Source: Gemmatimonadota bacterium
GTDB taxonomy: Bacteria; Latescibacterota; UBA2968; UBA8231
Direction: 5' to 3'
NCBI GenBank assembly: GCA_038153405.1
Contig: JAYOYH010000021.1
Coordinates: 1-31,539, forward strand
Length of the DNA stretch: 31,539 bases
The position numbers were made by a program, and so were the translations under genes. Positions 16,453 to 24,683 of the stretch are shown here, one piece after another. The notes beneath the pieces were generated by a model. That model saw nothing but the letters and a program-made list of their open reading frames with translations, searched no databases and had not been told where the DNA came from. Numbering within the stretch: the first letter of the stretch is position 1; the number at the start of each line of letters is the position of its first letter.

Positions 16453-17445
16453 CTAGTGCTCGCCCTTCTCTTCGTAGATGGCCTCGCGCAGGCCCTTGAT
16501 ATAGCCGATGGCAAAGAGGCGGCCGATCGACGAGTAGCCGGGATTGTTGTTGTCGTCGCCGGTCATGGTCGGCACGTGGTCGGGGCGCAGAACGCCCTCA
16601 AAGCCAATGTCCTTGTAGGCCTGCATACAGGCGCGCATATCCGTCTTGCCCTCGTCGTGAAAGGTCTCGACGAATTTCTCCGGCGTGCCCCGCACATCGC
16701 GAAAGTGCACAAAGTGGATCTTGTCCTGTTCGCCAAAGTGGCGAATGACGCCCGGAAGGTCATCGGTCATCAGCGTGAAGTTGCCCTGGCAAAGGCAGAC
16801 GCCGTTGGAAGGACTAGGCGCCATATCGATCAGGCGCTGGTAGTTTTCGACGCTGCGCATAATGCGGCCCATGCCGCGAATGGGCGATAGGGGCGGATCG
16901 TCGGGGTGCATGGCCAGCTTGACGCCGGCTTCCTCGGCGACGGGCAGCACCTTGTTGAGAAAGTACTGCAGGTTGTCCCACAGCTGCTCCTCCGTCACTT
17001 CGCCGGCGTAGGTCAGCGGCGCGTTCTTAATCAGCTCGTTGTCAAAGCCGGTCACGACGGCACCGCCCCGCGCTGGGGCCGCTGTCGAGGTGCGCATCCA
17101 GTTGAGCACCGGCATCCACTCGTAGCACCATACCTCAATGCCCAGCTTGCCCATGGCGCGGATCAGGTCACAGGCGTGCTCGATTTCCTCGTCGCGATCG
17201 GATAGCCCGAGCTTGGCCTTGTTCAACGGAGGCCGGCTCTCGATGACGTCGAGCTGAAAGCCGCCGTCGGCGTAGGCGGTCTTCATGCGCATAACAGAGG
17301 TATAGCTCCACGGCAGGTCATCGCGCGGCACGTCGTGGCCGCGGCGTCCGTCAAAGGAGCCGACGACGTAGTTGACGCCACACTGTTTAACCATGTCCCA
17401 CAGCGGTGTGCGATAGGGGGGCATGACTTCGGCGATTTTAATCAC
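16453..17445 (-). CDS. uxuA: Mannonate dehydratase (UxuA) family, paralog 2
   Basis: LAMHPDDPP, LCQGNF, IHFVHFRDV, FVETFHDEG and LRPDHVP. GTG start at 17445 after AAAGGA. Confidence 0.88.
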   Translation of the reverse strand: MIKIAEVMPPYRTPLWDMVKQCGVNYVVGSFDGRRGHDVPRDDLPWSYTSVMRMKTAYADGGFQLDVIESRPPLNKAKLGLSDRDEEIEHACDLIRAMGKLGIEVWCYEWMPVLNWMRTSTAAPARGGAVVTGFDNELIKNAPLTYAGEVTEEQLWDNLQYFLNKVLPVAEEAGVKLAMHPDDPPLSPIRGMGRIMRSVENYQRLIDMAPSPSNGVCLCQGNFTLMTDDLPGVIRHFGEQDKIHFVHFRDVRGTPEKFVETFHDEGKTDMRACMQAYKDIGFEGVLRPDHVPTMTGDDNNNPGYSSIGRLFAIGYIKGLREAIYEEKGEH

Positions 17446-17502
17446 GGTTGAATCCTTTCCGATGGGATGCGGTCGGCGCAGCATGCGCCGGCTCGTAGTA
17501 GC

Positions 17503-18956: not shown

Positions 18957-19171
18957 GCTGCGCAGCGCTCCGTGGATGTCGGGTGGGCGATGTATGTGCA
19001 CAATAAAGCCTTGCTACCGTCGCCTCGGATGGTACCCAGCAGCGTGTTATGAACCATCCGTGTTGAGACGTCGTTGTGCACCAGGCGTGAGGTCCATTCG
19101 ATGTGGCCTATTGCGTTACGCGCCATAGAGTTCTACGGGTTGTGAGGCAATAAAATACTTTTCGGCAACGC

Positions 19172-19202
19172 TTGACAAGTACACTGAATTTCGTGTTATT
19201 TT
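19172..19202 (+). promoter_or_regulatory. Candidate sigma70 promoter for the riboswitch-methyltransferase transcript
   Basis: TTGACA (19172-19177) and TG-t-TATTTT (19194-19202). The 19-nt spacer is long, but the predicted start falls near the P1 5' strand. Confidence 0.45.
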
Positions 19203-19207
19203 CCGCG

Positions 19208-19316
19208 TCTTCGTTTGGAAAAGGCAAACCGCGTGAAAGCGTGGGACGCGAAGGAACGGGTCCTCATCTCAAGGGGTTTCCTACCCCTTACCTAAGGATA
19301 GCCGCACTGTCGAAGA
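19208..19316 (+). ncRNA. c-di-GMP-I (GEMM-I)-fold riboswitch aptamer, variant with G20/G47/U92
   Basis: P1 TCTTCG/CGAAGA. GGCAAA-CCGCGT-GAAA-GCGTGG-GACGC forms P2 with a GNRA loop and the conserved internal loop. P3 CGGGTCCT/AGGAT-AG-CCG has the AG bulge. Located in a 5' leader. Confidence 0.85.
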
Positions 19317-19341
19317 GTATTGAACAGTGGCGGCTATTTTT
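19298..19341 (+). terminator. Intrinsic terminator (riboswitch expression platform)
   Basis: ATAGCCGCACTGT pairs with ACAGT-G-GCGGCTAT (13 bp, one bulge) and ends in a T-run. It overlaps the 3' strands of P3 and P1. Confidence 0.8.
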
Positions 19342-19404
19342 GTAGTCGCCTCAATGTCCATTGAAGCGACTCCCTCGCTTCGCTTTTTCCCATTGGAGTG
19401 TACT

Positions 19405-20190
19405 ATGGCACAGCACACCGCGATTTATCAGCAGGCAATCTACTACGATACCGTCTTTCGCCGCGACGTTGGGCGCGACGTGGAATTTATGCGGCAGGTC
19501 TATTGCCAGCATACCCACGGCGCGCTGCAATCGGTCCTCGACGTAGCCTGTGGACCTGGATATCACGCGCGCGCCTGCGCTCAGCGCGGTCTGCGCGGCG
19601 TCGGCTTGGACCTGCGCCCCGAAATGATCGCCTATGCGCGCGACCAAGCCGAAAGCGAAGGTATCGACGTCGAGTGGGTGATTGGCGATATGCGCGATTT
19701 TAGCCTAGCCGAGCCAGTAGACATGGCCATTTGCCCCTATGATGGCATAGATGCCCTAGTGGACAACGACGATCTCGTGGCGCATTTTCGCGCCATGGCA
19801 ACCAACCTGACACCGGGTGGACTCTATATAATCGAGAATATCCATCCGCGCTCCTGCTCCTATTACCACTACGGCAGACATACCTACCGAGGCGAGCGCG
19901 ACGGCATTGAGGTAGAGGTCACGCTCGGAGCCAACGAACCGCAATTCGATCCGATCACCGGCATTGCCGAAGTGGCCGTCGAGATGGTCGTGCGCAACGG
20001 CGTCGAAATTGCCCGTATTAAAGATACGGCGCACGAGCGCCTGTACACGCCGCAGGAAATTCGTCTCTTGGCAGAAAAGTCGGCTGCGCTGCAGGTCGTG
20101 GCCTGGTACGGCGAAATGAACATAGCGCAGCCGTTGGACAATTCACAGGGCGCGCAGAGCATGATAGCGCTATTGCAAAAAATCGGCTGA
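19405..20190 (+). CDS. Class I SAM-dependent methyltransferase
   Basis: VLDVACGPG motif I, GLDLRPEMI, GDMRDF and LTPGGLYII. GGAG RBS before ATG 19405. Confidence 0.93.
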   Translation: MAQHTAIYQQAIYYDTVFRRDVGRDVEFMRQVYCQHTHGALQSVLDVACGPGYHARACAQRGLRGVGLDLRPEMIAYARDQAESEGIDVEWVIGDMRDFSLAEPVDMAICPYDGIDALVDNDDLVAHFRAMATNLTPGGLYIIENIHPRSCSYYHYGRHTYRGERDGIEVEVTLGANEPQFDPITGIAEVAVEMVVRNGVEIARIKDTAHERLYTPQEIRLLAEKSAALQVVAWYGEMNIAQPLDNSQGAQSMIALLQKIG

Positions 20191-21214: not shown

Positions 21215-22192
21215 CTAGCTGCCGACTTCTTCGTTGGCGCGCTCGAGCAGCGCGCGGATATAGCCTATGGCAAAGGCGGCACCGGTATGCCGGCCGCCGA
21301 CCATATCGGGGCTGTGGTCGAGGATGAGCACGCAGTCGTTATTGACTTCGCGCAGCGCCTTCATCAGCGGGTACATATCGCAGTAGCCGTCGTCGACAAA
21401 GGATTCGACAAAGTGCGGCAGCGGCTGGCTGACGTTGCGAAAGTGCACTTTGAAAATCTTGTTCTGTGCGCCGAAGTGGTGGATCGTCTCGACGGGCGTG
21501 GCGCCCCAGGCCCCGCCCGCTTCTAACACGCAGCCCAGGCACAGGCACAGGCCGACGTTGGGGCTGTCGGCGATTTCCAGTGCGCGCTGATAGCCGGCAA
21601 AGCTACTGCCGACTACGCGCGGCACGTTGCCCAGCGTGACTCCGGGCGGATCTTCCGGATGAATCCCAATGCGCACACCGCTCTCTTCGGCAACGGGGGC
21701 AACAGCGCGGATAAAGTAGGCGTAGTTATCCCACAGCTCTTCTTCGCTGTAGGTGCGGTCAAAGGAGAAGTTTTTAAAGCTATAGCTCTCTTCGGGCAGG
21801 CGATGGCCGTCTCGGTAGGCGCGCGCGCTGGCGCCGCCGCGCGCCGCTTCGCGCGCCGAACTCGTTACGCCGGTGGCCATAAAAGAGACGGTGCGGTAGG
21901 TCAGTCCGGCGCGGCCCATGGCGCGCAGGCTATTCTGGTAGCGTTCGATTATCTCGTCGCGTCCTTCGAGGGCCAGCACTACCCGCTCGTCGTTGCTGAT
22001 GCTGCTGCATGTGGCCACCTGTAGGCCCACCTCGGCGGCCCTGTCGACGATGGCTTTGTACTCGTCGTAGGTCTCGGCCCCCGACCACATAGCTAGGTGC
22101 TCGACGCCGAGTTGTTTGGCCAACTGCACGCCCTCTTCGCTATCGGGCGAGGTTTGCAGAGCAATTTTGATATTGGATGTATTTTTTTTCAC
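21215..22192 (-). CDS. Mannonate dehydratase (UxuA) family, divergent paralog 3
   Basis: LWDNYAYF...PVAEESGVRIGIHPEDPP, LCLGC, VHFRNV, FVESFVDDG and LDHSP. Confidence 0.83.
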   Translation of the reverse strand: MKKNTSNIKIALQTSPDSEEGVQLAKQLGVEHLAMWSGAETYDEYKAIVDRAAEVGLQVATCSSISNDERVVLALEGRDEIIERYQNSLRAMGRAGLTYRTVSFMATGVTSSAREAARGGASARAYRDGHRLPEESYSFKNFSFDRTYSEEELWDNYAYFIRAVAPVAEESGVRIGIHPEDPPGVTLGNVPRVVGSSFAGYQRALEIADSPNVGLCLCLGCVLEAGGAWGATPVETIHHFGAQNKIFKVHFRNVSQPLPHFVESFVDDGYCDMYPLMKALREVNNDCVLILDHSPDMVGGRHTGAAFAIGYIRALLERANEEVGS

Positions 22193-22204: not shown

Positions 22205-23233
22205 TTAATCCAGCGTGGTGGCCATGACCCAGAACGGCTTATGCCCAACTTCGATTTCGTCGAATTCCTCTAGGGCGCCGCTGCTCGCATCGATGCGGAA
22301 GCACTTCATGCGGTCGGCCGCCTCGCCGGCGCAGTAGAGAAAGCGCCCGCTGGGGTCGATGTTAAACGAGCGCGGACTGGCCGGGACGGAGTAGTGGCCA
22401 AAGGGCGTCAGCGCCCCGTCGTCGGCGATGGTAAGCCCGACGATGCTGTCGTGGCCGCGGTTGGACCCGTAGGCCCAGCGCCCGTTGGGATGCACTTCTA
22501 CGTGTGCGGTGGACCCGCCTTCTTGCTCCCAGCCGTCGGGCAGCGTCGACAGATGCTGAAAGCGCTCCAGCGTGCCCGTGCCTGCGTCGTAGCGGTGCGC
22601 CGAAACCGTCTTGCCCTGCTCGTTAATGATGTAGGCGACGTCGCCAGCCGGACGAAAGCAGATGTGGCGTGGGCCGGTGTTATCGTCGGGGGGGAGCAGC
22701 TCGGCCGGGTCGTTTTCGGATAGCAGGCCGGTGTCGGTGTCAAAGCGGAATTGGCAGGTTTTGTTGGTGGGGCAGACGTGCGGCACAATGACGGCGCGAT
22801 CGTCGGGAGAGATGTGCACGGCATGGGCTTTAGGGCCGGTTTGCACGTGCTGAATTTGTTCTCCGATGGCTCCGTCTGCTCCCAAGCGGTGGACCGTGAT
22901 ACCGCCGCCGCCGTAGTAGGCCGTCAGCAGGTAGCGTCCCCCGCTGTCGGTGACGGAGTGGGCTGGGATATCAATGCCGGTGTCGACCTGGTTGAGCAGC
23001 GTGAGCTGTCCGCTGGACTTGTCGATATGGAAGCTGGCCAACGTCGTCGACTCGACGTGCGCGTCGTAGAGCACGTCCAACTGCGGGTGCAAAAAGAGCG
23101 CACCGGAGGGGCCATGAGCCGGACTCGTGGCGCGCAGACTCAGCGCGCCGTTAGATGCATCGAGGTCGTATACATTGATTTTCTCGTCGCCGGTCAGCGA
23201 GACGAAGACGACGGTGGAAGGCGTTTGTGTCAT
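22205..23233 (-). CDS. Lactonase family beta-propeller (6-phosphogluconolactonase-like)
   Basis: YLLTAYYGGG, AHAV, GPRHI.F, YIINE, YGSNRGHDSI and PRSFNIDPSGRFL. Confidence 0.92.
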   Translation of the reverse strand: MTQTPSTVVFVSLTGDEKINVYDLDASNGALSLRATSPAHGPSGALFLHPQLDVLYDAHVESTTLASFHIDKSSGQLTLLNQVDTGIDIPAHSVTDSGGRYLLTAYYGGGGITVHRLGADGAIGEQIQHVQTGPKAHAVHISPDDRAVIVPHVCPTNKTCQFRFDTDTGLLSENDPAELLPPDDNTGPRHICFRPAGDVAYIINEQGKTVSAHRYDAGTGTLERFQHLSTLPDGWEQEGGSTAHVEVHPNGRWAYGSNRGHDSIVGLTIADDGALTPFGHYSVPASPRSFNIDPSGRFLYCAGEAADRMKCFRIDASSGALEEFDEIEVGHKPFWVMATTLD

Positions 23234-23351
23234 GGTGGGCGTTCTCCTGGTGTGTGCTGGACGGAAGGCAATGTATGCCAATTCTATGGGTGCGCCAAAT
23301 CGATAGGGAAGCAGCGGTATTTAGTAGTTTATACGGCTTCTACTGGATACC

Positions 23352-24683
23352 TCATTTAAACTTCGGCAACCACGCGCCATGCGCTTTGATCAGGTCGTCG
23401 CAGAGCTTGCGAATGTCGTCGATTGATAGCTCGGCTGAGGTATGCGGATCGAGCATCGCGGCATGGTAGATGTGCTCTTTCTTGCCGGTGAATGCGGCTT
23501 CTAACGTGAGCAACTGCGTGTTGATATTGGTGCGATTGAGGGCGGCACACTGCTCGGGCAGGTCGCCGACGTAAGTGCCCTGCACGCCGTTTTTGTCGAC
23601 TAGGCACGACACTTCAACGCAGGCGTTGCCCGGTAGGTTGGTAATTAGGCCGTTGTTGAGCACGTTGCCGCCGATGACGATGGGCTGCCCGGTGGTGATG
23701 GCTTCCATGATATGCGAACCGTACTCGTGCGTGCGTCGGTGCGTCAAGCTCGCGCCGCGCAGCGATTGCTTCTGGTCTTTCCAGCGCGCGATCTGGTTGA
23801 CGCAGCGGCGCGGATACTCGTCGAGGGGAATGTTGAATTCATCGACTAAGTGCGGGTAGGTCGACTTGATAAAGTAGGGCACGTACTCGGAGAGGTGCTC
23901 AGACGACTCGGTTATGTAGTAGCCGAAGTTGAGCATCATATAGAGGCGCACCATATCAAAATTTTTGTCGGGCCCTTTGCGCCAAGCCGCCAGCTTTTTC
24001 CGCGCGCGCTTTTTGATTTCCGGATAGAGGTCCTTGCCGCCGTCAGTGATCTCTAGCAGCCACGCCATGTGGTTGATGCCGGCGATCTTCCACTGCAGAT
24101 CTTTGACGTCATCTAACATATCTAAGTTGCGCAGCAGCGTCGTGGCGCAGACCTGCACGGAATGGCAGAGGCCGACGGCTTTGACGCTGGTTTGGCGCAG
24201 GATACCGCCGGTCAGCGCACACATGGGGTTGGTGTAATTGAGCAGCCAGGCGTCGGGACAGACCTTTTCCATATCGCGCGCAAAGTCGAGCATGACGGGA
24301 AAGGTGCGCAGCACGCGAAAGATGCCGCCGATGCCGATGGTGTCGGCGATGGTTTGGCGCAGGCCGTACTTTTTGGGAATCTCAAAGTCGGTGATGGTGC
24401 ACGGATCGTAGCCGCCGACTTGAATGGCATTGACGACAAAGTCAGCACCCTGTAAGGCGCTGCGGCGCTGGCGAGGGCCCAAGTGCGTCTTAACCTTAGC
24501 GCGCCCGCCGTTGATATTCCTGTTCAGTGCGCGCATGACGGCCGCCGACTCTTTTAAACGCGTCTCGTCGATGTCGTAGAGAGCAATTTCGGCATCCTGC
24601 AGCGCGGGGGTGCACATGCTGTCGCCGAGAATGTTTTTGGCGAACACGGTGCTGCCGGCGCCGATAAAGGTAATCTTGGGCAT
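23352..24683 (-). CDS. melA: NAD-dependent alpha-galactosidase/glucosidase, GH4
   Basis: KITFIGAGSTVF, DFEIPKKYGLRQTIADTIGIGGIFR, LNYTNPM, GLCHSV, AGINHMAW and TESSEH. Confidence 0.93.
   Translation of the reverse strand: MPKITFIGAGSTVFAKNILGDSMCTPALQDAEIALYDIDETRLKESAAVMRALNRNINGGRAKVKTHLGPRQRRSALQGADFVVNAIQVGGYDPCTITDFEIPKKYGLRQTIADTIGIGGIFRVLRTFPVMLDFARDMEKVCPDAWLLNYTNPMCALTGGILRQTSVKAVGLCHSVQVCATTLLRNLDMLDDVKDLQWKIAGINHMAWLLEITDGGKDLYPEIKKRARKKLAAWRKGPDKNFDMVRLYMMLNFGYYITESSEHLSEYVPYFIKSTYPHLVDEFNIPLDEYPRRCVNQIARWKDQKQSLRGASLTHRRTHEYGSHIMEAITTGQPIVIGGNVLNNGLITNLPGNACVEVSCLVDKNGVQGTYVGDLPEQCAALNRTNINTQLLTLEAAFTGKKEHIYHAAMLDPHTSAELSIDDIRKLCDDLIKAHGAWLPKFK

Follow-up and report, generated by a model that had tools for sequence, protein, structure and literature searches.

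A G20/G47/U92 variant of the c-di-GMP-I riboswitch, conserved within one bacterial lineage, in the leader of a methyltransferase gene

The stretch of DNA considered here, which we call the window, comprises the 31,539 nucleotides of contig JAYOYH010000021.1 (forward strand, positions 1 to 31,539) from assembly GCA_038153405.1, archived in GenBank as a Gemmatimonadota bacterium and placed by GTDB among the Latescibacterota (UBA2968; UBA8231). The part of the window at issue is a leader on the forward strand together with the gene that follows it, and its features are these:

19172..19199, + strand: possible sigma-70-type promoter proposed from the sequence, TTGACA at 19172-19177 and a -10-like TGTTAT at 19194-19199, spacing 16 nt
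19213..19315, + strand: GEMM-I (c-di-GMP-I fold) aptamer, G20/G47/U92 variant, from the RF01051, RF03167 and R1 scores
19223, + strand: position 20 of the aptamer, G, as in canonical aptamers (CM alignments)
19229..19244, + strand: P2 hairpin with a GAAA tetraloop at 19235-19238 (Rfam alignment and fold)
19250, + strand: position 47, G, canonically A (CM alignments; invariant in 11 of 11 G/G/U sequences)
19271..19290, + strand: distal P3 hairpin AAGGGGU...ACCCCUU, the variable tip of P3 (fold; other hairpins in relatives)
19298..19342, + strand: terminator 1, a hairpin at 19298-19337 followed by a U-tract at 19338-19342 (fold)
19310, + strand: position 92, U, canonically C (aligned with the consensus C at position 75 of the RF03167 model; U in all 11 G/G/U sequences)
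19362..19388, + strand: second terminator-like hairpin, GAAGCGA/UCGCUUC at 19362-19382, with a U5 tract (terminator scan)
19395..19398, + strand: Shine-Dalgarno-like GGAG, 6 nt 5' of the ATG (sequence)
19405..20190, + strand: class I SAM-dependent methyltransferase, 261 aa, the predicted regulated gene (Pfam Methyltransf_25, E 4e-19)

The methyltransferase gene is monocistronic. No NCBIfam model recognizes its product at cut-off, and the neighbours of the protein in the atlas are generic class I methyltransferases. The possible promoter was missed by a consensus scan because the scan's rule for the -10 hexamer demands an A at its second position. Contigs from RNA libraries (two runs of one study) cover parts of the open reading frame, X19 at 19841-20045 and X20 at 19664-19854, with their coverage lying within the ORF and not in the leader, and they lend weak support to its expression; another RNA-library contig, over 19235-19269, continues into a different copy of the aptamer. 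On the opposite strand the gene is flanked by a set of sugar-acid catabolism genes that are unrelated to the switch (16453-17484, 21215-22192, 22205-23281 and 23352-24683), namely two UxuA-like dehydratases, a lactonase and a GH4 glycosidase.

The sole Rfam family matched in the window by cmscan was c-di-GMP-I (RF01051), at 19213-19314 on the forward strand, with 47.9 bits (E 1.4e-06) against a gathering score of 35 bits and with the alignment running through the whole model (1-87 of 87), so that the GEMM-I scaffold claimed in a preliminary description of this DNA is upheld. With clan competition lifted, in a permissive scan of 19100-19450 and in single-family searches of the genome, the best-scoring Rfam model for the aptamer is the variant family c-di-GMP-I-GGC (RF03167), at 54.9 bits (E 1.9e-12). 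This is below the cut-off of 59 bits, as are the 53.7 bits of a second copy in the same genome. The other variant family, c-di-GMP-I-UAU (RF03168), gave 41.7 bits against a cut-off of 65.9. The Rfam search that the preliminary description had proposed thus places the element above the threshold of the parent family and outside both of the characterised variant families. Our own model, R1, which was built from 18 sequences of the lineage, scores the window aptamer at 94.6 bits.

In canonical aptamers A47 intercalates between both bases of the ligand, and C92 recognises one of the guanines of c-di-GMP by Watson-Crick pairing. Both Rfam alignments agree on the corresponding bases in the window: G 19223 is the unpaired G lying 5' of the closing G-C pair of the GCAAA/GACGC loop, G 19250 stands immediately 3' of GACGC where the consensus is A, and U 19310 occupies an unpaired consensus C just 5' of the 3' strand of P1. 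This mapping agrees with the Vc2 numbering in PMC3764141, where G14-C93 is the apex of P1, A47-A49 lie in J2-3 and C92 lies in J3-1, and the triad and its coordinates were therefore correctly assigned in the preliminary description. The window element is a genuine GEMM-I-type aptamer in which two of the three ligand-contact bases are changed.

Set beside the named systems, the element shares with the c-di-GMP-I riboswitch of V. cholerae (Vc2; RF01051) the P1 helix, the GNRA-capped P2, the GCAAA/GACGC loop, the AG bulge of P3 and G20, as well as the placement in a 5' leader with a terminator and, for the other copy in this genome, an association with a motility-type gene (a FliG homologue); it differs in having G rather than A at position 47, U rather than C at position 92 and two non-canonical pairs in lower P3. 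Relative to the GGC family (triad G20/G47/C92) both G's are alike but position 92 is U, the score falls short of the cut-off and the sequence is nearer to the canonical switches of its own lineage, and with the UAU family only U92 is held in common, since that family has U at position 20 and A at position 47, both of which are G in the variant. The 3',3'-cGAMP riboswitch of Geobacter (GEMM-Ib) has the same scaffold with A20/A47/C92, whereas the window has G at 19223. The GGC and UAU variants were reportedly named by Weinberg and colleagues in PNAS in 2017. A full-text literature search, which did not extend to the paper that named them, turned up neither a description of a G/G/U variant nor a ligand for either of the GGC and UAU families, and a PNAS paper of October 2026 (PMC13715770) still lists four classes of cyclic-dinucleotide riboswitch.

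The three-helix junction, with its tetraloop-capped P2 and bulged P3, is supported by covariation. Across the alignment of 18 lineage sequences, 84.1% of the cells were paired, as compared to 26-40% when the pairing was slid, and compensatory changes are found at five of the six P2 pairs in the wider lineage and at three of the six within the G/G/U set. The GAAA-capped P2, the AG bulge of P3 (19300-19301) and the AAGGGG/CCCCTT hairpin given in the preliminary description are all present, but the hairpin (19271-19290) is not the extra element that it had been taken for, being the variable tip of P3, which is a different hairpin in each group of G/G/U sequences. Likewise, lower P3 was rightly described as poorly paired, with real mismatches at 19254/19306 and 19255/19305; these are invariant in all 18 lineage sequences, the canonical ones included, so they are a trait of the lineage and not a sign of decay. 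There is no insertion at J1/2 in the CM alignments, contrary to the statement that this junction is longer than in Vc2. P1 is weak in the Rfam register, its apical position being paired in only 1 of the 11 G/G/U sequences.

To find relatives, pattern scans with G20 and G47 fixed were run alongside the covariance models. The scans returned 44 loci in genomes and 84 in metagenomes, most of them chance or repeat matches; 23 of the 84 metagenome loci, those with at least four P2 pairs, were passed to R1, and the 80 model matches were used if they reached about 34 bits or more. RF03167 gave 22 matches in 14 genomes when searched against 101 relatives, and R1 matched in 13 of the family's 76 genomes, the order-level search covering the same 76 without adding to these. 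Nine low-scoring rows that read as "GGT" (L051, L106, L055, L047, L043, L033, L049, L039 and L031) come from truncated alignments and were left uncounted, and a Dehalococcoidia copy, L066, which a regular expression had read as G/G/U, is G/G/C by CM alignment.

There are 11 distinct G/G/U sequences, of which two are in the genome of the window (the second at G000:C5:43464-43558, or L002 1501-1594) and the rest in five further genomes and in metagenome contigs. Among the 168 genomes searched from the phylum, 6 contain the variant core, GACGCGAAGGAACGGGTC, at seven places in all, in the genera g1 and g7 of one family (f1) and g28 of another (f2); the six G/G/U genomes, from three genera, are G000, G001, G002, G027, G167 and G168. 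In the alignment of the 11 sequences, 62 columns show no variation, G47, U92 and the entire junction among them. Positions 47 and 92 are coupled in the lineage alignment, where G47 goes with U92 in 9 of 9 sequences and A47 with C92 in 9 of 9; as the G/G/U sequences seem to form a single clade, the coupling may record one ancestral double change, kept ever since, and not nine independent events. The preliminary description had proposed a maintained switch and had named, as what would count against it, a singleton triad lacking covariation. With 11 distinct sequences in three gene contexts, compensatory changes at three of six P2 pairs, invariant G47 and U92 and a second copy in the genome, the proposal stands, and the G/G/U element is a real, conserved and lineage-restricted variant of a known riboswitch class.

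This conservation weighs against the reading in which ligand binding has been lost and the aptamer persists as a relic in decay or as a leader fold that is constitutive, for example with the pocket closed by G47-U92 or by A(19219)-U92. The two non-canonical contact positions, together with the weak P1 and its apical pair in 1 of 11 sequences, speak for such a loss, and either a G47-U92 wobble or a pair between the invariant A 19219 and U92 is conceivable. The neighbourhood of the pocket is nevertheless invariant over 11 sequences, two families and three gene contexts, the helices change by compensation, and the terminators complementary to the aptamer strand have been kept, which together argue that the element is not a relic and make the loss of binding very improbable.

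A variety of other triads is carried by the same scaffold. Outside the lineage, G47 is found with C92 in L041, L066, L087, L096, L100, L101 and L121 and with A92 in L071, and U92 occurs with A47 (G/A/U) in L213 and L217, from a gammaproteobacterial MAG with 25 GEMM-I hits. In the gammaproteobacterial MAG G119, the genome of L041, the 16 of 25 hits that were aligned comprise 10 G/A/C, two G/A/U, two A/A/C, one G/G/C and one A/A/U. In the metagenome contigs L121, L122 and L135, GEMM-I aptamers are clustered, three of them lying inside roughly 1 kb, with G/G/C once and G/A/C twice. In a Dehalococcoidia MAG (G118), the near-identical GEMM-I paralogues L212 and L214 differ at position 47, being G/A/C and G/G/C, which suggests that the A47G change arises repeatedly. 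Closer to the window, the family that holds G/G/U aptamers also includes A/A/C aptamers (L019 and L029) and an A/A/U aptamer (L020). The A/A/C aptamers, which are of the cGAMP type, lie in genomes G030 and G035, where the active GGDEFs are all of the Asp type and there is no SMODS hit. The A/A/U aptamer (L020 1501-1602; G029:C81:19636-19737) is a single instance, with the GGAACGG and CUGUCG context of the G/G/U set and a triad that matches the engineered Vc2 G20A/C92U, a binder of c-di-AMP. A pairing of positions 47 and 92 with each other would be conceivable, as G-U in G/G/U, as G-C in GGC and as A-U in UAU and A/A/U; A47/U92 in a G/A/U triad and G47/A92 also occur.

Against this background the element could be an ordinary member of c-di-GMP-I-GGC in which C92 has drifted neutrally to U. 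RF03167 is after all its best-scoring Rfam model, G20 and G47 both match, and G47 with C92 recurs in other lineages. The 54.9 bits are below the curated cut-off of 59, however, and position 92 is not drifting, because it is U in 11 of 11 sequences. The sequence itself also points elsewhere: CGGGUCCUC...AGCCGCACUG is common to the G/G/U set and its lineage's canonical G/A/C switches, where GGC members of other phyla have GAAGCCAUGGGU...CGCCAGGYUACCG instead, and from this closer likeness G47 has probably arisen independently here. We consider simple membership of the GGC family unlikely.

The G/G/U aptamers precede three kinds of gene. The methyltransferase of the window has an orthologue 3' of a G/G/U aptamer in the metagenome contig L123, and a hairpin lies in that leader at the same relative place as the second hairpin of the window. 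A FliG homologue follows the aptamer in L004, L012, L013 and L090, and a small peptide with an ATP-grasp protein follows it in L056, L058, L117 and L120. FliG-type genes are a classic second-messenger target. The second copy in the genome of the window and three relatives precede such a homologue (at L002 1681-2715 in this genome), which passes TIGR00207, and the placement of this sister copy weakens the argument, made in the preliminary description, that the regulated gene is atypical for c-di-GMP. The same genome has four full-length FliG homologues (100, 83, 70 and 42% identity), with a riboswitch at only one of them, and it has one FlhA and nine flagellin-type genes, so that the riboswitch-linked FliG is a paralogue in a flagellated organism. 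In the four peptide leaders, two or three successive terminator-like hairpins are followed by an ORF for a conserved peptide of about 22 aa (...LLDYGG..) and by the ATP-grasp ligase, an arrangement that looks like a small RiPP-type operon. The genes downstream of G/G/U aptamers are signalling- and motility-type targets. Other genes lie downstream of the lineage's canonical G/A/C switches: those for surface or secreted proteins, for a response regulator and for a TonB-type receptor. Both types are present in G027 (G/G/U in L024 versus G/A/C in L015 and L028), and in the sample examined no downstream gene is common to the two.

In the predicted folds, the leader of the window has the layout of a switch that is turned on by its ligand. 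The 3' strand of P3 together with U92 (19298-19313) pairs with 19321-19337 to make the hairpin of terminator 1, which has a predicted energy of -19.7 kcal/mol on its own and which is followed by the U-tract; the same 19298-19313 segment is common to aptamer and terminator, which are mutually exclusive. Within the hairpin U 19310 is predicted to pair with A 19324, as the preliminary description had it. The minimum free energy fold of the leader, at -53.5 kcal/mol, contains terminator 1, as compared to -26.0 kcal/mol with the aptamer enforced. Since the 3' strand of the aptamer overlaps an intrinsic terminator, the model predicts that transcription terminates when no ligand is present and continues when ligand is bound. 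The overlap is a design shared by canonical members of the lineage, and by eye a complementary strand and then a U-run can be found in 9 of 11 G/G/U leaders, the GC-rich leaders L024 and L090 being without an obvious U-run.

This ON logic is, on the folding model, complicated by the second terminator-like hairpin. Its behaviour in the predictions is the opposite of that of terminator 1, in that it forms when the aptamer is enforced and has its 5' arm sequestered in the unconstrained fold. Enforcing the aptamer also leads to a predicted pairing of 19329-19337 with 19342-19350. In the FliG leader a strong second terminator is present in both folds, unconstrained and with the aptamer enforced. 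A relay in that leader, with segments b and c acting as an antiterminator, was considered and was not chosen by minimum free energy folding with the aptamer enforced; it would be a kinetic possibility only.

With respect to the ligand, the genome of the window offers one active-type GGDEF (GGEEF), three degenerate GGDEFs, five PilZ hits and two DAC domains, and domain searches of it gave no EAL hit and no SMODS cyclase. Its sole active-type diguanylate cyclase (G000:C17:50682-51695; L075) has an N-terminal Rossmann-like GxGxxG domain. As stated in PMC6456294, the Hypr GGDEFs that make cGAMP have Ser where the canonical, GTP-specific enzymes have Asp, nine residues after a conserved Asn. Asp follows GHxxG in every active-type GGDEF that was read, from G000, G001, G002, G027, G167, G168, G029, G030 and G035, and the Hypr signature, sought as this one residue in genomes 84-98% complete, was not found in the six G/G/U genomes; a SMODS cyclase, sought with one Pfam model at the same completeness, was found in 0 of the 9 genomes searched. 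The partner enzymes of GEMM-Ib, a Hypr GGDEF or a DncV/CD-NTase (for which one CD-NTase model was used), thus did not turn up in the genomes that carry the variant, which have PilZ-type signalling alongside the canonical Asp-type GGDEF in all six cases and in 5 of 6 the G/G/U variant as the only GEMM-I element found. The presence of the cyclase does not in itself discriminate, because all 8 genomes of the genus have an orthologue of it, whereas 3 of the 8 have the riboswitch.

Work on Vc2 gives some idea of what the changed bases may do. In V. cholerae, according to a bioRxiv preprint (10.1101/617340), a C92U change in Vc2 abolished most of the response, which was partly rescued by overexpression of a diguanylate cyclase, and this partial rescue fits a weaker but retained binding of c-di-GMP. 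As listed in PMC7288161, engineered Vc2 with G20A binds cGAMP and with G20A/C92U binds c-di-AMP (PDB 3MUV). The laboratory mutants C92U and G20A/C92U (PDB 3MUR and 3MUT/3MUV) are like the natural variant in having U92, but they keep A47, where the natural variant adds G47.

The possibility has to be weighed here that the G/G/U pocket marks a riboswitch class of its own, with another ligand. The most plausible candidate would be an adenine-containing dinucleotide with a G at the G20 site and an A paired to U92; 3',3'-cGAMP bound opposite to the GEMM-Ib orientation, a linear pGpA-type product or another nucleotide signal are possible options. For GEMM-Ib a single pocket change re-targeted the ligand on the GEMM-I scaffold, which is a precedent (PMC7266159). 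Two of the three contacts have changed here and then stayed invariant in 11 of 11 sequences, U92 is the Watson-Crick complement of adenine, positions 20 and 92 reprogramme the specificity of engineered Vc2 (PMC7288161), the A/A/C and A/A/U siblings in the family resemble a combinatorial use of these positions, and G/G/U and G/A/C coexist in G027 before different genes. What this possibility leaves wanting is a source for such a ligand, since the six G/G/U genomes show no known type of cGAMP synthase (the active GGDEFs being Asp-type and SMODS 0 of 9), a place for it in the five of six genomes where the variant is the sole GEMM-I element and c-di-GMP machinery is present, and a need for G47, given that A47 only stacks on the ligand bases in known structures. 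We regard a different ligand as possible on a tentative footing. A more specific form of it is a shade more doubtful still, in which G/G/U would be a distinct class that reads an adenine-containing dinucleotide and no longer c-di-GMP, forming a two-position code with its G/A/C, A/A/C and A/A/U siblings.

The canonical diguanylate cyclases, with neither Hypr GGDEF nor SMODS found in the searches described, favour c-di-GMP at altered affinity over a new ligand. The conclusion of the preliminary description that the switch senses a different molecule is not established, the FliG sister copy, the Asp-type GGDEFs, the PilZ proteins and the negative Hypr and SMODS searches tending to favour c-di-GMP. 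The best explanation, to which we would give about an even chance (roughly 0.5) from the sequence data, is that the window holds a conserved G/G/U variant of GEMM-I which, with its terminator, turns the methyltransferase on when ligand is present, the ligand most likely being c-di-GMP bound at altered affinity. In such a switch the far more stable terminator 1 would form without ligand, and transcription would stop near 19342; with ligand bound, 19300-19310 would be held in the aptamer and the polymerase would pass. The c-di-GMP would come from the genome's single canonical diguanylate cyclase, U92 would form a wobble pair with one of its guanines and G47 would stack between both ligand bases, and the result would be a sensor whose threshold lies above that of the canonical G/A/C switches in sister genera. 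Several points sit uneasily with retained c-di-GMP binding: U92 would pair better with adenine, the coexistence of G/G/U and G/A/C before different genes of G027 is explained as well by a separate ligand, and the ON logic is unclean, given the alternative pairing and the second hairpin that are predicted with the aptamer enforced.

GEMM-I is the textbook scaffold for a riboswitch whose ligand is changed, from c-di-GMP to cGAMP, by one mutation of the pocket. What has been found here is a natural and conserved variant in which two of three contacts are changed, with a small regulon consisting of a FliG paralogue, a methyltransferase and a peptide/ATP-grasp operon, and with canonical switches in sister genomes. 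If c-di-GMP is still bound, the variant would represent the tuning of thresholds within one signalling network, and it would show a second change accompanying C92U. If another ligand is bound, it would add a riboswitch class and point to a new dinucleotide signal in a poorly studied phylum. Should the reading of an adenine-containing dinucleotide prove true, a natural two-position code would distinguish cyclic dinucleotides on one RNA scaffold, and an unrecognised source of the signal would exist in a phylum without known cGAMP synthases.
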